From a virus: a stretch of 64,000 nt of DNA. The notes beneath the pieces are model-generated. The model saw only the letters and a list, made by a program, of their open reading frames with translations, was not told where the DNA came from and ran no database searches. Both the position numbers and the translations under genes were made by a program. Shown in pieces: positions 14,901-24,205 of the stretch. The stretch covers positions 1 through 64,000 of the IMG/VR virus record IMGVR_UViG_3300032053_000019; one strand, given 5' to 3'. Every line of letters starts with the position of its first letter. Within the stretch, counting starts at the first letter, position 1.

Positions 14901-16459
14901 TTGGTGGACTCTTTGGTGGGTTGTTCAAGAAAAAGAAAACTGCCGAACAAAAGGCCGCCGAGGAACTGAAGAAGCAAGTTGACTCCGTGACCAAGTCGTA
15001 TAAGAGTTTGGGAGACATTACTGAGGCCACAGCGAAAAAGATTATTGATCTAACCAAGCAGTATAACAAACAAACCGCTACGATCATGACATTGACTGAT
15101 GTGATGAACGACGCCGGAATCTCAATGAAGAACCTTCAGGGTTATGTTACGAAGATGACTCAGGCACTCCGGGATATGGCAAGCGGAACAGTTGATGTAC
15201 AGAAGGGGATGGATGCAATAGGTTCAGCTTTCAACGCCTTGATCACCTGGGCACAAAAGTTTGATAAGGAGGGATCTAAGGCATTGGTCTCTTTCATGCA
15301 GTATCTCAGGAAGATCGGAGTAAGTATTGCTGAAGTGGATGACTATGTCTTTGGAGCCCTTGAGAAAGGTGCTGGTGGACTGAAGTCTATGGTTGAGTCG
15401 GTCGGCGGTTCAGGTTATAAGCAGTTGATCACCTATCGTGATGAGATAAAGACTTTGGGCGAAGAAGTTGATAAGTTGTCCATGTCTAAGATCTCTGAGC
15501 GGGCCGCCCAGCGTGAGTACCTCCAGAAAAAGGCCCAGTTGGAAGAGTTGCGGAAAAAGTATGACGATCTGAAAACTTCTCTGGCTTCTGGACTTGCTCC
15601 AGAGTTGGAGAGAGTTGGGCGCCTGACTGTGGCGATGTTTAGTTCGTTTATTCAGCAAGGTAAAAGTATGTCTGAAACCTTTGCTCTGATGGGGGACTCA
15701 CTGGTTGCACTTCGTGACAAATATACTGAGTTAGGTCTTACTGGTGGAGCCGCCATTGAGGATCTTTTCAAATTGGTTGATATACAAAAAGCGAATGAGG
15801 GATTGTTTGAGGGGCTTGAAGGAACAAGACAACTACTTAAGGCACTTGGTGATACTGGCTTCCTGACCGCCGAATCTCTGGCTGATCTTTCTACACAGGC
15901 TACCGGATATTATGACAAACTGATCTCGGCCGGATTAGATCCTAAACAAGCAATGGCGATGGTCTCTCCGACCCTATCTGATCTAGCTTATTATGCTGAA
16001 CAATATGGACTAAAACTTGATGCCGGAACGGAGATGTTAATTGCACAAGCAAAGTTGGCCGGTACTTGGAAAGATAGAGGCAAGGATATTAATGTAATAC
16101 TTGAGGAAGGGTTTAGTGATCTTATTGGTCGTGCTGATCGCCTCATCAAACTTGGTGAAGAGTCTCATGAGGATCGAAGGGGTAGAGAGACCTATGCTCA
16201 GCATGGGTTTGAGGGTACGGTGACAGGACCAAGAACATTCTATGTTGAACCTGGAGTGACCGAGGCGGTGAGGATCGGAAGACCGGGCAAGGTAGAGAGT
16301 GATGGATCCCAAGTTACCGTGATTGAAAAGAATGTGACCTTTGAACCGGTGATCATTCCTTTCAAGCATCTTCAGTCGTTAGTGATTGAGTGGGTTCAAA
16401 AGGCCAGTGCTGATGAACGAATCTTGGTACGGCCTCGGGCGGTTAGAGGGAGAGGATAA
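11987..16459 (+). CDS. Tail tape measure protein
   Basis: 1490 aa, Ala/Gly-rich and helical, TP901-type core, follows the chaperone. Confidence 0.9.
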   Translation: MAAKKDILVVLEFDDKGSYKIKKTIGDVSTILAKAGTEAGKAGQGFTKLKTDATAAAGGMDKLKGSFKSGMLQMAAGLGLWTGMSSVLRALTTNLKDVVTKGREFDTSFSKVSIMLKGTAEESEKVKMSLLRMSPALGSSAENARTLGMSLREFAEIPIAEHFKMVEQAAILATSAYTTNEIAMEALTSVIKGFHLETSQASQVSDVMTKATQLENVSFEEITKTILKLSSTAYQAGVGLDELVATFLTLTHTGVDSQTAMMQLRMLLQGIMKPSAGATAEARKLGLEWGVAGVKAQGFSKWLSELGRVTQGNSAILDNLFQGGRTLVGVINLASTASKELTSNIGDLSTAFNGGNDAQRVFLERMKTVNFWLKMAGELFNKLKVAIWEGFTGSITKGAGSAEEMKKRIDALTQSVITTGLSIGKAIGDAIKFIVKFKDELVLLFKVWLAFTVASKAVSFGRLLMAGIETGLTTMPRLAGAMSGITAALGTAVAALAAFAAGWKIGEWLSDVTGLKKKILEIGDWGAGAENTKQLKAMTDLKAALRDTGESAIQLKIKYGSYSAALEAVNNGTEKLIKAKVEEKKALSESSQAAATAAEAETNRLAGLREMLKGYGYTLKTEVQDRYDTLKQGLADFGDQMTKIDYDRMKKELRELGAVLGKNSQALLNLGILTKTEVSVEVIKITKDFWDLKKEMEAGNITWANYQAGIDAINEALKKLDPTLTATLNNMTKVAETPLPSPKKWNLEAPGLMTEEQMMGPAVQYPTPPPRYFSGFMDEKAALLGIQRATQYKYKLVEVEEAYRSLKATADITHQDEVTAVTMIADLYHQLGLTVPKEYQKIIDKAAEAAKGMSSDMIKGFSALGTALQVFGDTAGEKLKPLVTAAASVAGQIASSLTRQFNEMGGKGKMDFKNLKKAFKELSGELAGALGAALGGLIGGGGANTYGGIGAALGGALGSILPGVGNVIGSLVGGLFGGLFKKKKTAEQKAAEELKKQVDSVTKSYKSLGDITEATAKKIIDLTKQYNKQTATIMTLTDVMNDAGISMKNLQGYVTKMTQALRDMASGTVDVQKGMDAIGSAFNALITWAQKFDKEGSKALVSFMQYLRKIGVSIAEVDDYVFGALEKGAGGLKSMVESVGGSGYKQLITYRDEIKTLGEEVDKLSMSKISERAAQREYLQKKAQLEELRKKYDDLKTSLASGLAPELERVGRLTVAMFSSFIQQGKSMSETFALMGDSLVALRDKYTELGLTGGAAIEDLFKLVDIQKANEGLFEGLEGTRQLLKALGDTGFLTAESLADLSTQATGYYDKLISAGLDPKQAMAMVSPTLSDLAYYAEQYGLKLDAGTEMLIAQAKLAGTWKDRGKDINVILEEGFSDLIGRADRLIKLGEESHEDRRGRETYAQHGFEGTVTGPRTFYVEPGVTEAVRIGRPGKVESDGSQVTVIEKNVTFEPVIIPFKHLQSLVIEWVQKASADERILVRPRAVRGRG

Positions 16460-17223
16460 TGACCAACTGCACATTTATGTATAGTAACAAGTGGGATCTC
16501 GCCACGCTGACTCCTAGTACGGAGAACCCCCTCTTCCCAGCGATCAATACCCAGCATCGGTGGCACACTAGAACCTGGAGAAGTATTGACAACACCGGTA
16601 CGTTGACGGAGTCCATTGTAGCCGACTTTGGCACCTCTCCTCCAGCGATACAAGCCTTCGCTATAAAAAAGCATAACTTCTCACCTTCGGCGGTGGTTAG
16701 CATTCAAGCCGATGATGATCCTGCTTTCGGGAGCCTGTCCATTGATGTTATCGTTCCAGTTGCCGAACTCATGGCTTACTTTTGGTCGGCACCACAAACT
16801 CCCTATCAATACTGGCGGGTGCTGATCGTTGATATCGCACCGGTAGCGGCCTACTTGGAGATCGGACGGATCTTCCTTGGTCCCTACCTCAGTCCGTCAA
16901 TTAATATGTCCATTGATTATAAAAAGTCGACCGAGGATCCGTCGGACGTGATGTTTTCCTCTGGTGGGCAGATCGTTACCAATCAGAAAACTCGCTACCG
17001 CACTATGGACATGAAGTTCGAAAATCTGCCCGCGGTCGATGCTGACAACTTTGATGCGATGTTTCTAGATCGTGGTATCGGACGAGAATTCTTTTTCACT
17101 CGAGACCGGGATCTCCCTTCCACCACGACCTGGTATGTCCGGTTTTCATCCAAACCCACCATTGAGCATGTCTTCGGAGAGGTATACTTCAATGCTTCCT
17201 GTTCGATTGAGGAGTTAAGATAG
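16459..17223 (+). CDS. Putative distal tail protein
   Basis: Immediately after the tape measure; YQYWRV, LEIGRIFLG motifs. Confidence 0.6.
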   Translation: MTNCTFMYSNKWDLATLTPSTENPLFPAINTQHRWHTRTWRSIDNTGTLTESIVADFGTSPPAIQAFAIKKHNFSPSAVVSIQADDDPAFGSLSIDVIVPVAELMAYFWSAPQTPYQYWRVLIVDIAPVAAYLEIGRIFLGPYLSPSINMSIDYKKSTEDPSDVMFSSGGQIVTNQKTRYRTMDMKFENLPAVDADNFDAMFLDRGIGREFFFTRDRDLPSTTTWYVRFSSKPTIEHVFGEVYFNASCSIEELR

Positions 17224-19769
17224 TGAACTTCGAGCAACTGATTGCCAAGACCGATTCATGGAAGGTCTTTCTCGCTGAGATTGAACCGTGCCACGAAGTT
17301 GAGTCTTTGACATGGACACCGGACGGTGTCTACACAAACCTCTGGTGGGCCGCCTATTCATATGGTGTTGTCTCTCGAGTAACTCAAGATGGAGTTGAAT
17401 ATACGGAAGCCTACTCCCTTCAAGAGGCAGACGACAACGCCGAGTATTTTTATTATGACTTGGCTAATCAAAAACTTTATCTGCATACGACTGACACTGA
17501 CGACCCCGGAACTCAAACAGCCCCTCCATTGTATGACTACGTGATCCTAGCCTTTTTCTGGAGATACTTCTCCAACACTCAGTATGGTGATAGTGAGATA
17601 GTCCTTCCTCGTATTACCCAAGCATTGAAAGACGGAGGGTTTGAGCAGTGGACTTCAGCAACCGTACCAGTAGAATGGACAAAGACAGAGACAGGAACCT
17701 CAACAGTCAATAGGGAGCAGACAGAAGCCTACGATGGTGCGTTCTGCTTGAGGCTAGACGTTGATGCGGGCAACTCAGTAGTTGATGTCCACCAACATAT
17801 TCGTTTGGTCCCTGGAACCGTTTGCAAGATTAAGTTCCGGTTTAAACAAACTGGAGCGGCAACATCCGCAGTTCAGATTAAGGATGCAGGCGGAAATGTT
17901 TATCTGCAATCGGATGGTACCTGGGATGCGGGAGTGTCAACGATTGCTATGGTACACCAGGATGAGTGGACGGAATATGAACTATCCTTTACTGCCCATG
18001 CTTCATATAGTGACTATATCATTGACTTTGTTAGTGACGCCTCAGCATCCGAGTCCCTGTACTTCGATAAAGCAAGTTTGATTATTGAACGAGAGGCAAA
18101 CCCGTATCTTCCTTATATCACTACAGCAGGAATGCCCGAACTCCACCAGTCGGTTTCACCCTTCCATGAGAGCGCGATGACAATGGAGTTTGGTTCACTG
18201 CAGTTCTTGAATGATGGTTGGTGGTATGGACAGATGCAAAGTTACTACTGGAATCTCAAGGATGTGGTAATTCGATTCGGTGCCAAGGACTTCACTTATG
18301 ATCAATACGAGGATGTCTTCCATGGTTTGGCAAGATATCCGAAAGCGAGTGATGTCATTGTCTCCGTTGATGTGATTGATCATAAGGCGTTTACCTATAA
18401 GAACGTTCCCCTCACGACCTATGAAGTAACTACCTATCCCAATCTTGAGGATGGTGCTGAGGGCTCGTCCATTCCGATCATCTATGGTGAGTTTGAGGAA
18501 GTGGTGGCAACCCTGGTTGATGCCACAACCTATCGGTTCAAGTTAGCCTGCCATGCACTAGAGGCAATCGTTGACGTTTGGAAAAATGGTCAATTGCTGG
18601 CCACTCCGGCTGACTACTCAGTTGACCTTCCCAATGGGGAGTTCACTCTAGTTGCCAATCCTGGACTAGCTTTTGTTACTGCCCATGTCAAGGGCAGGAA
18701 GTGCGGTATTCTTGATGGTGCCTATTCCGAGAACGTTGCCGATATCTTATATGATTTATTGACCACCTATGCTGGAGTAGCGGTGGAGGATGTTGATCTG
18801 AAGTCGTTTCTTGATCTAAAAAATGGCCGTTCACAAAAGCATCAACTCTATCTAGATACCTCTCTTCCTGCTCTCGAAAGCGTTCGTACTCTACAGGTGT
18901 CTGCACTGTTCCATCTATCCCCTCTACTTAATGGACAACTAGGCGCGTTCCGATATTACGAAGGAACGGATAGTGATACTCCAGTGGTGGTAGATGAGGA
19001 TATTGAGGACTTCGGTTTGGAGTTTGATACCGAGGGTGTTTACAAAACCATTCAGATTAATTATGGTTTCTTACCCAGTGAGAATCATTACTCTAGTATT
19101 GAGATCGTTTCGGAAAAAACTGATTGGAAGCATAAGAATAAGTTAACTCTTCCTTTAACAACTTCACTCCGCCTCCAGGCAGATGCCGGAGAGTTGGGGG
19201 CTTATTACGTCGGCGTTTTACAAGATCCTTTGAAAAAGGTTACTGGTATACTTCCCTCTAAAATGTTTTCTTCTTTCCCCGGGAGTAAGGTGATCATCAC
19301 AAAGACACGATTGCTTTCCGATGGGACAGTTTACTCCGTTCTGGCTTCCGAACCGTACAGATTGCTAGACCTTAAAAAGTCCATGCAGTCAGGAAAGGTT
19401 GGAGTCATTGCTTGGGAAGATTTACAATCGTCGGGCGGTGGGTTTTGTGAGGTGTGTTATCACTGCCAAGTTTGTAATACGGTGCAGTCTGGTGCTTGTA
19501 CAAGTTGTTATGCCTGCCAACTTTGTGTCTCTGGTCAATGTGCGACTTGTCAAACCTGCTATTACTGCCAGGCGTGTGTCTCGGGACAATGTACCACTTG
19601 TCAGATTTGTAACACATGTCAGTCATGTGATGCTTGTCAAGGTGGTCAGTGTGGAATTTGTGTAACTTGTCAACAGTGTGTCACTGGTGAGTGTACTACT
19701 TGTATGCATTGTGATAGCTGTCAAAAATGTGATAGCTGTCAAAAATGCTACGGAGGAATTTTACCATAA
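17223..19769 (+). CDS. Tail tip/hub protein with a carbohydrate-binding-like insert and a C-terminal 30-Cys repeat
   Basis: IPIIYG hub-like motif; DGGFE...YFD CBM-like segment; CxxCxxC repeats in the last ~105 aa. Confidence 0.7.
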   Translation: MNFEQLIAKTDSWKVFLAEIEPCHEVESLTWTPDGVYTNLWWAAYSYGVVSRVTQDGVEYTEAYSLQEADDNAEYFYYDLANQKLYLHTTDTDDPGTQTAPPLYDYVILAFFWRYFSNTQYGDSEIVLPRITQALKDGGFEQWTSATVPVEWTKTETGTSTVNREQTEAYDGAFCLRLDVDAGNSVVDVHQHIRLVPGTVCKIKFRFKQTGAATSAVQIKDAGGNVYLQSDGTWDAGVSTIAMVHQDEWTEYELSFTAHASYSDYIIDFVSDASASESLYFDKASLIIEREANPYLPYITTAGMPELHQSVSPFHESAMTMEFGSLQFLNDGWWYGQMQSYYWNLKDVVIRFGAKDFTYDQYEDVFHGLARYPKASDVIVSVDVIDHKAFTYKNVPLTTYEVTTYPNLEDGAEGSSIPIIYGEFEEVVATLVDATTYRFKLACHALEAIVDVWKNGQLLATPADYSVDLPNGEFTLVANPGLAFVTAHVKGRKCGILDGAYSENVADILYDLLTTYAGVAVEDVDLKSFLDLKNGRSQKHQLYLDTSLPALESVRTLQVSALFHLSPLLNGQLGAFRYYEGTDSDTPVVVDEDIEDFGLEFDTEGVYKTIQINYGFLPSENHYSSIEIVSEKTDWKHKNKLTLPLTTSLRLQADAGELGAYYVGVLQDPLKKVTGILPSKMFSSFPGSKVIITKTRLLSDGTVYSVLASEPYRLLDLKKSMQSGKVGVIAWEDLQSSGGGFCEVCYHCQVCNTVQSGACTSCYACQLCVSGQCATCQTCYYCQACVSGQCTTCQICNTCQSCDACQGGQCGICVTCQQCVTGECTTCMHCDSCQKCDSCQKCYGGILP

Positions 19770-20092
19770 TGGCTTGCCCAACATGTCAGAGTTGTGATGC
19801 CTGTCAGGCATGTTTTGCCGCCGTATGCGGAAGTTGTCAGGTTTGTGTGGCATGTCAAGCCGCCTGCTATATAGGACAGTGTGGTACTTGTGAACTTTGT
19901 AATACCTGTCAAGCCGCCTGCTATACAGGGCAGTGTCCCACTTGTCAGTTATGCGATTCGTGTCAAAGTTGTTATACGGCTCAGTGTTCGACGTGTCAGA
20001 TTTGTAATACATGCCAGTCGGCGTGTTATTCAGGGGAGTGTCCCACTTGTCAGATTTGTAATAATTGTCAGTTATGTGTTACGTACCAATAG
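19769..20092 (+). CDS. Cys-rich repeat peptide (107 aa, 6 x 5 Cys), putative radical SAM substrate
   Basis: GGAGG RBS and TAATG coupling; C-x2-C-x2-C-x2-C-x2/3-C-x4 repeated six times. Confidence 0.8.
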   Translation: MACPTCQSCDACQACFAAVCGSCQVCVACQAACYIGQCGTCELCNTCQAACYTGQCPTCQLCDSCQSCYTAQCSTCQICNTCQSACYSGECPTCQICNNCQLCVTYQ

Positions 20093-20101
20093 GAGTAAAC
20101 T

Positions 20102-21442
20102 ATGAATGATAAAGCATGTCTTAACTGTTACCATTGCGAGAAAGGGGTAGCAAAACATGTGAACGCAGAAATGTTTCTTCAGGCTCAAGCCGATGGGAAG
20201 ATTCCTGAGGAGTGGTTCGTGAAGGATGATTCCATTGACTGTGCCGATTGTTACCACTGCCAAAAGTGCTATGCTGATCAAAAAGACAAAGGTACTAGTG
20301 GGCAGAACGAAGCAAACTATTTCGTTTTTCTAACGAACGAATGTAACCTTCGTTGTACCTATTGTTACGCAACGAAGAAACCGATCTCCGCAACTAAGGA
20401 AATGCTTGATCGGCTGAAAGTCTTTCTCACCGAGGAGGAAGACAAACGGTTGGGCGCTCATGACATCAGTATTCAATTCTTCGGAGGAGAGCCAACGGTT
20501 GAGTGGAATAGCCTCACTCAATTTGTAGAGGAGTTCTCTGACTATTACAATAAGTTGTATGGACGAAAGGTTCGTTGGGGTATGACCACCAACGCAACTC
20601 TTCTCAATCGGGAGCGTTTGGAGTTCATGAAGAAGTGGGAGATGATTCCTCTCTTCAGTATTGACGGACGACCAGAGACTCATGATCATCATAGGAAGAC
20701 AGTTGGTGGGGGAAACTCCCATCATCTTATTCCATTGGATTTGATCTTGGAGTATTACCCAACTCCGGAAATACGTCCGACCATTACCCCTGATACGGTA
20801 GCAGACTGGTTGGCTGATCTTCGCTGGTTCCATAGCAAGGGGTTGTATATTGTAGCTACTGAAGTAGCGTACGAGGCGGATTGGACAGAAGAGAGCCTTT
20901 TGTCGGCCCGCCAAATGTACGAGAGTCTTGCCGAGATTTACGTTGAACGAAGGCGGGCGGGACTACCAGTCTGGATGAAGTTCATTGAGGATGGTCTTGG
21001 GTTCCTTGGATCACAAGAACAAACCGGCCACGTTTGCGGAATTGCACGTGGTGTGGTGGGCGTTGATTCCGAAGGGAAGTTGTTTGCTTGCCAACGGTAT
21101 GCCTCGTTCTCGGATCCATCACTGGCGATCGGTGACATTTGGAAAGGGTTTGATGAGCATAAACTGGCTGAGGTTCAGGATCTCAAGCGGGAGTATATGT
21201 ATCCTGATCCTACCTCGGGGTTCAAGTGTGACGATTGTGTGGCTAAATGGAGATGCCGAGGTGGGTGTAATGCGATGAACTTTCAATGCACGGGTGATCG
21301 TAAGATGATTCTCACCAACCATTGTAAGTTTCAAAGGATGTGGGCTGAGATTTCCCTCACTGCCCTTGCACGAACGGGGGAGCTTTGGGGAAAGAAATAT
21401 AAAAAACCTGGTACGTGTGAAGATCAACCTAGCGAGAGATAA
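20102..21442 (+). CDS. Radical SAM/SPASM-domain peptide maturase
   Basis: CNLRCTYC, FFGGEP, SIDG; SPASM motif CG...G.LFAC...CDDC...CRGGC...C. Confidence 0.9.
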   Translation: MNDKACLNCYHCEKGVAKHVNAEMFLQAQADGKIPEEWFVKDDSIDCADCYHCQKCYADQKDKGTSGQNEANYFVFLTNECNLRCTYCYATKKPISATKEMLDRLKVFLTEEEDKRLGAHDISIQFFGGEPTVEWNSLTQFVEEFSDYYNKLYGRKVRWGMTTNATLLNRERLEFMKKWEMIPLFSIDGRPETHDHHRKTVGGGNSHHLIPLDLILEYYPTPEIRPTITPDTVADWLADLRWFHSKGLYIVATEVAYEADWTEESLLSARQMYESLAEIYVERRRAGLPVWMKFIEDGLGFLGSQEQTGHVCGIARGVVGVDSEGKLFACQRYASFSDPSLAIGDIWKGFDEHKLAEVQDLKREYMYPDPTSGFKCDDCVAKWRCRGGCNAMNFQCTGDRKMILTNHCKFQRMWAEISLTALARTGELWGKKYKKPGTCEDQPSER

Positions 21443-21444
21443 CA

Positions 21445-22692
21445 ATGCCTGGAAGCAGAGAACGGTTCATTACTGAGGCGGAACTAGACCGCATTCTACA
21501 GAACTATCTCAAAAGAATAAAAGCAATAGTAAGTGGGGCGTCCGTCTTTACGGACTTAACGGATGTTCCAAATAGTTATGCTGGAGAAGGTGGAAAGGTT
21601 GTCGTGGTGAAGGCAACTGTAGATGGTCTTGAGTTTGCCGCCGCTGGTGCAGGCGACATGATGAAGGCCATCTACGATACCAACGACGATGGTGTGGTGG
21701 ATGCGTCTGACTATGCCACTGAGGCGGGGGATGCTGATACGGTCGATGGAGACCATGCCGCTGACTTTGCTCCTGTCTCCCATCAGCATGGCGGTGGAGA
21801 CATTATCTCTCAGGTAGGTGATTCAGACAAGGTTGATGGAGAGCATGCCTCAGCGTTTGCCGACGCGTTACATAAGGCACAACACGAAAGTGGTGGGGGT
21901 GCTGATGCGATCAAGCTGGACGATTTAGCCGCTCCGGACGATAACACAGACCTTGATGTTTCGCCGACACTCCATGGCCTTGCTCCGAAGCGAGACGGAG
22001 ATGCTAAGAGTTTCTTGAGTGGATTAGGAACATGGCTAAAGCCGGGAATATATACTCTTCTCAATGAACCCTTCGATGGACTCAATACTGCCAATATTAA
22101 TGCGCAAGGATCATATACTAACTTTGGCGCATGGGCAGTAACTCTGATTGGGGACACCACGGCGAAGGTTGTTGTTAATGCGGGCGCGGATAAGATGGGA
22201 CAACTTGACGGCGATACCGTGATAGAAGGGACGTCACGATGCTACATAATAACCGGGGCGACGTGGCCCTGGGGCTTATGTTGGGGGACTCGTTTCCATT
22301 GTAAAATTAGAACGTCAGATAAAACTGTGGGAACAAAGGGGGTTCAGATCGGAGGGGCGGCGAACGCCGATTGCTATCAGGTTTATTTTAATACTGTAAG
22401 CGGAGGGAGCCTAGCCTATTGGAATGGGTCATCTATTACCTCGTTAGTGAATCCCGTCGTCAATAATCAGTGGTACGAAGTCGACATTTTCATCTGCGGA
22501 TATTCAACGCCTTCCGCACTCGTCTTCATTGACGGAGTTCAGATGGGAGCACCGAAGGCGTGCCGCGCGAACTCTGAAAACTGGAATCAGGTGTCCTTTT
22601 ATTGTAATACCGCAGGTACGGCGGCCCGTATCAATCTTGATTTCGACGATCTTCAGATAGCAACCAATTGGTTCTGGAGTTTGCAGGATTAA
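21445..22692 (+). CDS. Tail fibre/receptor-binding-like protein
   Basis: FTDLTDVP, D-D.VDG.HA..FA repeats, C-terminal ConA-like domain. Confidence 0.65.
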   Translation: MPGSRERFITEAELDRILQNYLKRIKAIVSGASVFTDLTDVPNSYAGEGGKVVVVKATVDGLEFAAAGAGDMMKAIYDTNDDGVVDASDYATEAGDADTVDGDHAADFAPVSHQHGGGDIISQVGDSDKVDGEHASAFADALHKAQHESGGGADAIKLDDLAAPDDNTDLDVSPTLHGLAPKRDGDAKSFLSGLGTWLKPGIYTLLNEPFDGLNTANINAQGSYTNFGAWAVTLIGDTTAKVVVNAGADKMGQLDGDTVIEGTSRCYIITGATWPWGLCWGTRFHCKIRTSDKTVGTKGVQIGGAANADCYQVYFNTVSGGSLAYWNGSSITSLVNPVVNNQWYEVDIFICGYSTPSALVFIDGVQMGAPKACRANSENWNQVSFYCNTAGTAARINLDFDDLQIATNWFWSLQD

Positions 22693-23668: not shown

Positions 23669-23697
23669 TTGACACTTAGAAAACCATCATATATAAT
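23669..23697 (+). promoter_or_regulatory. Sigma70-type early promoter P1
   Basis: TTGACA-17 bp-TATAAT, perfect consensus. Confidence 0.9.
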
Positions 23698-23728
23698 AAT
23701 AGTGAGGATGAAAATGAGAAAGGCAAAG

Positions 23729-24205
23729 ATGGTAAAAGAAATCCTTCAGGTCCTGAGCCTAAGCCTTTTCCTTTTTGGATTTGCAAAGCATCCTTTGATC
23801 ATTGGAGCCGATTCAGTTTCGGAACAAACCATCCGGCAAAGTATCAATAAATTGAGTGGGTGGGATCGGCGGTGCATCTGGGAAATTCGGATCATTACTT
23901 CAGAAGATGAGTGGGCAACTGAACTCTCCGGATATCGGCCGAAGAGTGCTTTGGGGATGTGTGAGAGTGATGGTGGTCGGATCCTCCTTCGTGCAACTCC
24001 TGGTGTGGTGGTGACCGAGTATAACATCCTTCATGAGATTGGTCATGCAGTTTGGTTCCTTCGGTTGACGCAGAGTGAACGTAAGGACGTTGAGGAACTT
24101 TTTGATCAGGCCAAGAAGGGGTTGGTTTCCTTCCCCACGAAGTATAGTGAGAAGAACGTTGAGGAGTTCTTCGCCGAATCGTTTGCGCTTGCGAAGGGAG
24201 TCTGA
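23729..24205 (+). CDS. Zinc metallopeptidase (ATLF/MPTase-like) with hydrophobic N-terminus
   Basis: LHEIGH and EFFAESF motifs. Confidence 0.7.
   Translation: MVKEILQVLSLSLFLFGFAKHPLIIGADSVSEQTIRQSINKLSGWDRRCIWEIRIITSEDEWATELSGYRPKSALGMCESDGGRILLRATPGVVVTEYNILHEIGHAVWFLRLTQSERKDVEELFDQAKKGLVSFPTKYSEKNVEEFFAESFALAKGV

Follow-up and report, generated by a model that had tools for sequence, protein, structure and literature searches.

SPASM-domain radical SAM maturases of ranthipeptides and sactipeptides make Cys-to-carbon thioethers on Cys-rich peptides. QhpD, also a SPASM radical SAM enzyme, places Cys-to-Asp/Glu thioethers inside a structural subunit, QhpC, with no cleavage of a leader. To our knowledge, the CXXX-repeat modification system is known only bioinformatically. 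In the usual view, phage particles owe their cohesion to folding, metal ions, disulfides or autocatalytic isopeptide bonds. The large Cys-repeat protein CrpA of Methanococcus voltae receives ranthionine crosslinks, demonstrated by MS, from the SPASM radical SAM enzyme CrpC (Dieter et al. 2026, PMC13692751). Neither 'phage' nor 'tail' occurs in the text of that paper, and 'virus' appears in it only in tobacco etch virus protease. Full-text literature searches yielded no paper on phage tail proteins modified by radical SAM enzymes, and the two phage papers found to name radical SAM genes (PMC12801897 and PMC10773633) concern unrelated genes.

The window analyzed here is the whole 64,000-nucleotide stretch of IMG/VR record IMGVR_UViG_3300032053_000019 (positions 1 to 64,000), a complete sediment phage genome with a siphovirus-type tail module. 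Its late operon is ordered as follows: tape measure, a 254-aa tail protein, a hub protein (A), a free Cys-repeat protein (B), a radical SAM/SPASM enzyme and a variable fibre (Table 1). We consider it probable that the enzyme staples the Cys arrays of A and B by RiPP-type thioether chemistry, giving a tail-tip needle. The four ORFs listed in the first-pass annotation, made from the letters of the sequence, are all present on the + strand at the coordinates it gave, and the anatomy it described (a Cys-rich hub end, a translationally coupled B, then the enzyme) agrees exactly with ORF coordinates and Cys counts. The gene order it reported, with a tail-fibre-like gene after the enzyme, also stood, but 'fibre-like' is a weak call; conservation of that product across related phages is limited to its N-terminus (residues 7-70, about the first 65). 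The TAA stop of the hub gene overlaps the ATG of B (TAATG), with GGAGG 13 nt upstream, and the TAG stop of B is followed after 9 nt by the ATG of the enzyme. In related loci, too, homologues of the 254-aa protein are encoded directly 5' of the hub gene. Neighbouring genes are tail genes and unassigned small ORFs. A sub-threshold HExxH protein is encoded 2.2 kb downstream. Five sequencing runs from five studies, all sediment metagenomes and one of them possibly the source sample, contained at least half of the sampled words; no RNA run was listed among the matching runs.

Table 1. Features of the hub, Cys-repeat and maturase region, in window coordinates
Feature	Position	Strand	Basis
Conserved 254-aa tail protein, between tape measure and hub, in a distal-tail-like position	16459..17223	+	phrog_8610, E = 1.3e-20
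Tail-tip hub / central-fibre protein A, 848 aa	17223..19769	+	AF2 and Foldseek; gene after tape measure
CBM4/9-like carbohydrate-binding insertion in A, residues 135-271	17625..18035	+	Pfam PF02018, 28 bits (cut-off 25.9)
Cys-every-third extension of A, residues 742-842, 30 Cys	19446..19748	+	Cys count, homologue alignment
Free Cys-repeat protein B, 107 aa, 30 Cys, six 18-residue units	19769..20092	+	Cys count, alignment; coupled to hub gene
Radical SAM/SPASM maturase, PapB/CteB-like, 446 aa	20102..21442	+	Pfam, NCBIfam, profile, Foldseek
Substrate-like N-terminal motifs of the enzyme (CLNCYHCE, CADCYHCQ)	20117..20269	+	Cys conservation, match to first block of A
CxxxCxxC radical SAM cluster motif (C81, C85, C88)	20342..20365	+	Invariant in 35 sequences
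SPASM auxiliary-cluster Cys (C312, C330, C376, C379, C385, C389, C408)	21035..21325	+	Invariant in 35 homologues
Variable fibre-like protein with conserved N-terminal anchor	21445..22692	+	PHROG tail protein, E = 1.5e-6 over residues 27-82 (weak)

By its predicted structure, A is a siphophage tail-tip hub of the T5 pb3 / lambda gpJ type. The AF2 model is confident over residues 300-735 and matches T5 pb3 and the DT57C hub (Foldseek E = 3e-17) as well as lambda gpJ (E = 2e-13), all with probability 1.00; the gene directly follows those for the tape measure and the distal-tail-like protein, as expected of a hub. CBM4 structures are also among its Foldseek matches. The Cys extension opens with a conserved junction, DLQSxGxxF-CEVCYHCQ, its Cys are spaced by 3 (24 times), 5 (4 times) or 8 residues (once), and AF2 predicts no fold for it (pLDDT about 27). 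The neighbouring tape measure protein has no Cys in 1490 aa, and the Cys columns are invariant at 28 of 30 positions in A and 27 of 30 in B among homologues that are only 52-73% identical overall; the Cys arrays are therefore not a product of chance.

The Cys region of B likewise obtains no fold from AF2, and both regions contain 28.4% Cys. The residue directly after Cys is Q, D, E or N in 66-69% of cases in A and B, which gives a C-X3-(D/E/N/Q) pattern that we take to be the PapB-type motif; Asp and Glu, the preferred acceptors of PapB, are a minority in the B of the window. Only two residues precede the first Cys of B, so that it has no leader of the kind found in classical RiPP clusters, as the first-pass annotation had remarked. 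Across 23 loci, in which the Cys regions span 52-301 aa, the lengths of A and B are tightly matched (r = 0.994, slope 1.04): the mean absolute difference is 6.6 aa against 81.5 aa after shuffling, and none of 100,000 shuffles gave a value as low. Identity at non-Cys positions is 0.43-0.44 within the A regions and within the B proteins and 0.25 between A and B; by these values the two are separate orthologous lineages. We rejected B as a recent duplicate of the tail of A, since the A-B identity is below that of the orthologues, and recent duplication therefore does not explain the equal lengths. Matched lengths in separate lineages suggest that A and B co-assemble in register.

The arrangement is strictly conserved. 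In all 31 loci with enzymes 34-97% identical to that of the window (about 20 lineages, from IMG/VR and JGI metagenomes), Cys-every-third ORFs are found immediately upstream on the same strand, and both Cys-repeat ORFs are present in every such locus with enough upstream sequence. Two paralogous substrate-like forms, A and B, lie directly upstream of the enzyme in all related loci. More distant enzymes, 27-31% identical, are also accompanied by the Cys-ORF pair (L013, L014, L178-L180, L186, L189-L192, L194). The gene contexts of the 73 protein-database homologues were checked through viral and metagenome locus scans. In a tree obtained by a quick search, Cys-repeat-associated enzymes cluster, none of 500 shuffles of the labels giving clustering as strong, and the 20 enzymes with N-terminal motifs form a single clade (SH-aLRT 94). 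All homologues come from uncultured phages; the best match among isolated phages (Phass-1) is 28% identical and has a different gene context, and among 185,579 species of bacteria and archaea, with one genome for each, no match exceeded 30% identity. The first-pass annotation had suggested looking for the trio in other phages, and had named enzyme homologues devoid of repeats as evidence against its proposal that the tail tip is modified by RiPP chemistry. No such homologue was found at 34% identity or above. That proposal is supported by the conserved trio, the hub fold, the kinship of the enzyme and the co-variation of repeats and enzymes described below.

The enzyme belongs to the radical SAM superfamily (Pfam PF04055, 40.4 bits, cut-off 29.5). 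The Pfam SPASM model finds no match on it, and its seven SPASM Cys align Cys for Cys with those of CteB. Among NCBIfam families it scores highest with the PapB ranthipeptide maturase (NF047865, 192.3 bits, E = 1.3e-56, 321 of 330 profile positions), still under the cut-off of 340; nif11, SCIFF and QhpD come next. Scores remain under the cut-offs for the SCIFF maturase (TIGR03974, 122 bits, cut-off 425), the QhpD family (118 bits, cut-off 453) and the CXXX-repeat maturase (TIGR04115, 77 bits, cut-off 350). The closest solved relative, both by profile (204 bits) and by fold (top Foldseek match, E = 1e-21), is CteB (5WGG). Sequence and modelled fold thus place the enzyme nearest to the thioether-forming SPASM maturases PapB and CteB; judged by its scores it is a relative, not a member, of the PapB family. 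As it scores under the curated cut-off of every named family, its reaction is not transferable by equivalog logic. Residues 1-74 give no family match in Pfam or NCBIfam, and the alignment to CteB begins at residue 75. AF2 models this N-terminus with low confidence, as unstructured apart from one helix. Its motif, present in one to five copies across the family with Cys that are invariant or nearly so, is the same as the first block of the Cys repeats of A, in agreement with an earlier remark that the N-terminus resembles the substrate. The enzyme N-terminus mimics the first motif of A and stands in the place of a leader-binding RRE domain.

A radical chemistry on Cys other than ranthionine formation, i.e. 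formylglycine as made by anSME-like enzymes, S-C(alpha) sactionines, epimerisation or inter-chain links only, is an unlikely outcome. It would account for anSME being the second-best relative by structure and sequence, for an enzyme that falls under all family cut-offs, and for a Gln-rich acceptor context unlike that of the characterized substrates of PapB, CteB and CrpC. However, the PapB and CteB scores are clearly above those of anSME (about 112 bits) and of the sactisynthase SkfB (36 bits), and the C-X3-(D/E/N/Q) pattern fits ranthisynthases.

Repeats of other types are carried by the same hub scaffold. Homologous hubs in three loci (L173-L175) terminate in CxxxC repeats, with a radical SAM enzyme of a sister clade encoded right after them, and in two others (L241, L242) they end in (V/T)AH(S/E)(D/N) His/Asp pentapeptide repeats directly followed by a different radical SAM/SPASM enzyme, whose best families are anSME, DynA and cyclophane-forming maturases. 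Repeat type and enzyme type co-vary on this one scaffold, the enzymes being by sequence ranthisynthase-like for Cys and cyclophane-like for His. No B partner was found in the related CxxxC and His/Asp hub loci, so that the general principle does not depend on B. In bacteria, CXXX-repeat peptides also occur as free-standing products with signal sequences (L177, L181).

The sister hubs bear on the reading that the Cys repeats are metal or Fe-S ligands of a metal-laddered needle, the enzyme either doing something other than cross-linking or serving only to keep the Cys reduced or loaded. We regard this as improbable. CxxC arrays have the classic spacing of Zn or Fe-S ligands, the His/Asp-rich repeats of sister hubs are ligand-like and in the same position, the inability of AF2 to fold the region is expected if cofactors are missing, and the A/B length match would fit shared metal sites equally. 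His-Fe sites are known from the fibre tips of other phages. Against this, the repeats come with an enzyme of a SPASM peptide-maturase clade in every locus without exception, and the enzyme class switches with the chemistry of the repeats, as expected of a modifying enzyme and not of a metal loader; we know of no SPASM enzyme acting as a metal loader. Neither a metallochaperone nor a leader protease or exporter was found near the trio. It is very improbable that B is an ordinary secreted RiPP (bacteriocin or signal) carried as a phage moron, with the hub Cys tail unrelated or a decoy: B is small and directly 5' of a RiPP-type maturase, and signal-bearing CXXX-repeat peptides exist in bacteria (L177, L181), but B has no leader, the enzyme no RRE and the neighbourhood no protease or exporter, B is translationally coupled within the tail operon and tracks the hub Cys region in length over the 23 loci, and the 185,579 bacterial and archaeal species contain no close homologue in their one genome each.

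We therefore retain the stapled tail-tip needle, whose formation may be pictured as follows. In the anoxic cytoplasm of the host, the enzyme, with three [4Fe-4S] clusters, would cleave SAM and take a hydrogen off a carbon in the side chain of a residue between Cys; in two thirds of cases the next residue after Cys is Gln, Asp, Glu or Asn. Cys sulfur would then be joined to that carbon, and many ranthionine-type thioether staples could arise along the hub extension and B. The hub is presumably a trimer, with B as a partner of equal length; side by side and in register, A and B would make up a thin central needle or fibre, held by covalent staples and projecting from the tail-tip cone, so that B would be part of the virion. 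With B leaderless and the enzyme devoid of RRE, the N-terminal copies of the first motif of A (CxxCYxC[E/Q]) probably dock the enzyme on the repeats. Such a needle would outlast reducing sediment, unlike a structure held by disulfides. More tentatively, we propose that an uncultured siphophage lineage finishes its hubs by radical RiPP chemistry with interchangeable repeat cassettes (CxxC or CxxxC with ranthisynthase-like enzymes, His-x-Asp with cyclophane-type ones), that A and B form a heteromeric needle stapled residue for residue, and that the maturase recognizes its substrates via a built-in first repeat.

If this is true, radical SAM stapling of a virion protein would be a new class of virion maturation, and RiPP chemistry would extend from secreted peptides to structural proteins. 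The needle would be the first enzymatically cross-linked virion fibre, and the docking a novel mode of enzyme-substrate recognition. With three genes and substrates of about 100 residues, the system is small and gives a handle on the processing of dozens of sites by a SPASM enzyme without leader or RRE, and the A/B length match provides a concrete structural hypothesis. Thioethers, unlike disulfides, withstand reduction and would be apt for anoxic sediment. Hyper-cross-linked rods might also serve as stable protein materials.

CrpC/CrpA is the nearest experimental precedent. In both cases a SPASM enzyme adjoins a large protein with a C-terminal Cys-repeat array, the substrate is a protein and not a cleaved peptide, and there is a second paralogous substrate-like protein (CrpB, compared with B). 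The C-X-X-Q/D motif of CrpA is similar to the C-X3-(D/E/N/Q) pattern of A and B (PMC13692751). The archaeal system is however cellular and not viral. An RRE is present in CrpC, and a leader-like N-terminus of 47 residues is common to CrpA and CrpB, whereas the phage enzyme has no RRE and B no leader. The repeats of CrpA have a length of 17 residues and contain far fewer Cys, and the CrpC family (TIGR04463) is absent from the best 25 of the 70 NCBIfam matches of the phage enzyme. PapB/PapA (freyrasin) and CteB/CteA (SCIFF) provide the best relatives of the enzyme by sequence and fold, with the full SPASM Cys set, and their substrates have repeated Cys-X3-acceptor motifs as in A and B; PapA and CteA are however short peptides that carry a leader, and CteB begins with an RRE, whereas the proposed phage substrates are a virion hub protein and a leaderless B of 107 aa and 30 Cys. 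The NCBIfam CXXX-repeat system (TIGR04115) also pairs a periodic-Cys target with a dedicated SPASM maturase, and a version of it in phages, with the repeats on a homologous hub, forms the sister clade (L173-L175), but its period is 4 (C[E/Q]xxC) instead of 3, with neither a B partner nor N-terminal Cys motifs in the enzyme. QhpD/QhpC resembles the proposed system in having SPASM thioethers in a structural subunit without leader cleavage; it differs in having three crosslinks in a small enzyme subunit (quinohemoprotein amine dehydrogenase), with no repeat array, and in not being viral. Finally, the T5 pb3 and lambda gpJ hubs have in common with A the fold of about residues 300-735 and the place of the gene after the tape measure, but the known hubs run on into fibronectin-like or receptor-binding domains, whereas A runs on into a Cys array accompanied by a maturase.

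The first-pass annotation had described a tail protein ending in a Cys array, a translationally coupled Cys peptide without leader and a radical SAM gene, and the ORF listing and residue counts confirmed each of these. The 848-aa tail protein ends in 30 Cys (array A), spaced by 3 residues in 24 cases, by 5 in four and by 8 in one. The free protein that follows (B, 107 aa) contains 30 Cys in six 18-residue units; its ATG overlaps the TAA stop of the upstream gene (TAATG), with GGAGG 13 nt upstream, and only Met-Ala precedes its first Cys. The radical SAM gene (446 aa) begins 9 nt past the B stop. The tape measure protein of the adjoining gene (1490 aa) contains no Cys at all. Among homologues that are just 52-73% identical, 28 of the 30 Cys columns of A and 27 of the 30 of B stay invariant as the intervening positions drift, so the reading frame and the Cys pattern are under selection. 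The source virus record (98,439 bp) is 100% complete according to CheckV, and near-identical DNA is contained in several sediment metagenome runs; no tRNA gene was found.

Location of the features discussed, in the window and in other loci
Feature	Location	Strand	Placement	Basis
Tape measure protein			Upstream of 254-aa tail protein	phrog_991 and others, well supported
254-aa conserved tail protein			Between tape measure and hub genes	phrog_8610
Hub gene	17223-19769			
Cys array A	Hub residues 742-842			
CBM4/9-like insertion	17625-18035 (hub residues 135-271)	+		
Free Cys protein B	19769-20092			
Radical SAM/SPASM maturase	20102-21442			
415-aa ORF			3 nt downstream of maturase gene	ORF listing
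178-aa ORF	23669-24205	+	2.2 kb downstream of maturase	
Long maturase-containing ORF	L005:6735-9059			
Period-4 hub and sister-clade enzyme	L173:1420-5185; L175:1093-4772			
His/Asp-repeat hub homologues	P0135-P0143		Without genomic context	Protein database
Complete His/Asp loci	L241:5968-9967; L242:5803-10026			IMG/VR
Third His/Asp phage locus	L245:3772-8102		Unrelated viral contig	
Distant CxxC systems	L180:3404-4572; L192:803-1863; L186:3604-4076			

An AF2 model of the 848-aa protein, built from 16 homologues, is confident over residues ~300-735. Foldseek matches it best to the baseplate hub pb3 of T5 and DT57C (E = 3e-17) and to lambda gpJ (E = 2e-13); the Chi, JBD30 and gene transfer agent hubs come next. 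The modelled protein is therefore the tail-tip hub or central-fibre protein. A is attached at its C-terminal end, where a pLDDT of ~27 amounts to no prediction. The CBM4/9-like carbohydrate-binding insertion suggests that the hub itself touches glycans. The protein downstream of the maturase, a variable fibre-like protein conserved across loci only in its first ~65 residues, probably carries host specificity. The 178-aa ORF further downstream has a hydrophobic N-terminus, a HEIGH motif and a sub-threshold match to the Pfam zinc metallopeptidase ATLF (23.5 bits, cut-off 27.4).

The enzyme carries the CxxxCxxC motif together with all seven SPASM cysteines, which are invariant; these align one-to-one with the cysteines of the ranthipeptide maturase CteB. 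CteB is also the nearest solved structure (204 bits by profile, E = 1e-21 by fold), anSME being second. Among curated families, the PapB ranthipeptide maturases score highest (192 bits, E = 1e-56, below the cut-off of 340), ahead of nif11, SCIFF and QhpD maturases at ~120 bits. These best but sub-cut-off scores point to a relative of the thioether-forming SPASM maturases that belongs to no named family. In the proposed mechanism, an anoxic host would express enzyme, A and B together from a late operon with translational coupling, and the enzyme would install many thioethers from Cys to side-chain carbons along both arrays. Two thirds of the Cys are followed by Q, D, E or N, giving a C-X3-(D/E/N/Q) pattern, which is that of PapB substrates; that the enzyme instead performs a different radical modification of Cys is unlikely.

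No leader-binding domain (RRE) was found in residues 1-74 of the enzyme, which hold two CxxCYHC(E/Q) copies with one short helix between them. The motif C..C[YF].C[EQ] opens A in 11 of 12 clade members examined, right after a conserved DLQSxGxxF junction, and often recurs there at 17-residue intervals; one to five copies occur in the enzyme N-terminus, and most loci lack it in B. The C-termini of the His/Asp-type enzymes described below carry HGD repeats, likewise resembling their substrate. Such a substrate-like segment may serve as a docking device in place of a leader-RRE pair. In one locus the maturase-containing ORF is 774 aa long and starts ~420 residues ahead of the conserved core, by fusion or through an early in-frame start codon.

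Searching 5.8 billion proteins delimited the enzyme family to ~73 cluster representatives, 34-99% identical over their full length and all metagenomic; beyond these, scores fall to generic PapB-like proteins and the family is sharply bounded. IMG/VR, JGI metagenomes and 185,579 species, each represented by a single genome, were scanned; the 234 loci obtained were screened by script. Co-occurrence was seen in all 31 loci whose enzyme is at least 34% identical (~20 distinct lineages): immediately upstream on the same strand lies a homologue of the hub whose C-terminus is a Cys-every-third array, with a free Cys-every-third protein after it wherever that DNA is present. There was no close homologue of the enzyme in the species-representative genomes (best 30%) or among isolated phages (best 28%). 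Among enzymes at 27-31% identity, several further groups are again preceded by two CxxC proteins (L013, L014, L178-L180, L186, L189-L192 and L194). Enzymes associated with repeats group together in a quick maximum-likelihood tree (equally strong label clustering in 0 of 500 shuffles), and the 20 with N-terminal motifs form a single clade (SH-aLRT 94). Given the 31 close loci, the distant groups and this clustering, enzyme homologues without the repeats, named as a refutation in the first-pass annotation, did not turn up in this family.

Other repeats occur on the same hub scaffold. The hub homologues of L173-L175 (blastp E down to 4e-22) end in period-4 C(E/Q)xxC arrays, directly followed by a radical SAM enzyme of a sister clade; L173 and L175 have no free partner protein. 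Other homologues, 31-39% identical in the protein database, are almost devoid of Cys and end in 140-200 residues of (V/T)AH(S/E)(D/N)-type repeats, with aromatic-x-Asp/Asn every 4-5 residues. In the two complete His/Asp loci the next gene encodes a different radical SAM/SPASM enzyme, closest to anSME, DynA and the cyclophane-forming maturases YhhB, AmcB, GrrM, FxsB and XyeB. Maturases of this group form His-to-carbon links (for example PMC11499958). The His/Asp-type hub is a candidate His-crosslinked tail tip. The third His/Asp locus encodes a 389-aa repeat protein, then two tandem radical SAM genes, flanked by tail-fibre-like genes. One scaffold carries three kinds of repeat, each paired with an enzyme of its own, and enzyme class shifts together with repeat chemistry, as it should if the hub extension is the enzyme's substrate. 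This is hard to square with repeats that only bind metal or Fe-S clusters, without enzymatic cross-links, an explanation we consider unlikely.

Over 23 loci, the Cys regions of A and B (52-301 residues) are matched in span (r = 0.994, slope 1.04) and in Cys count (r = 0.99, slope 1.03). Spans differ by 6.6 residues on average, compared to 81.5 with shuffled partners (0 of 100,000 shuffles as low), and the length correlation persists with a single representative per length class (r = 0.993). Over 17 loci A and B total 3145 and 3147 residues, each 28.4% Cys. A and B are nevertheless two separate orthologous lineages: outside the Cys positions, identity is 0.43-0.44 within either and 0.25 between them, and their block structure differs too, with CxxCYxCQ blocks and VSGQ-type linkers in A and CYTGQ linkers in B. 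The simplest explanation for lengths that stay equal over many independent expansions is that A and B pair side by side from end to end. Once stapled, A and B would form a thin rigid central needle below the tail-tip cone, resistant to reduction and proteolysis. A conventional secreted RiPP fits poorly with these matched lengths, with genes located within a tail operon and with the lack of leader, RRE, protease and exporter.

Both the class of chemistry and the notion of targets with Cys repeats have precedents in ranthipeptides, CXXX-repeat families and Crp; our literature searches found no paper placing them on a virion protein. The experimental precedent is CrpC/CrpA of Methanococcus voltae, in which a SPASM enzyme cross-links a large Cys-repeat protein (PMC13692751); the words "phage" and "tail" do not occur in that paper, and "virus" does so solely in tobacco etch virus protease. 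In the distant systems L180, L192 and L186, the two Cys proteins are each free-standing, have a short tag (MDIR.. or MSFNVN..) in common at the N-terminus and accompany enzymes without N-terminal Cys motifs; the tag recalls the leader-like region common to CrpA and CrpB. The C-X3-(D/E/N/Q) pattern of A and B is similar to a C-X-X-Q/D motif described for CrpA (PMC13692751). What sets the system of the window apart is that its period-3 array sits on the tail-tip hub itself, that the partner B matches this array in length, that the N-terminus of the enzyme resembles the substrate and that a His/Asp system exists in parallel on the same scaffold.
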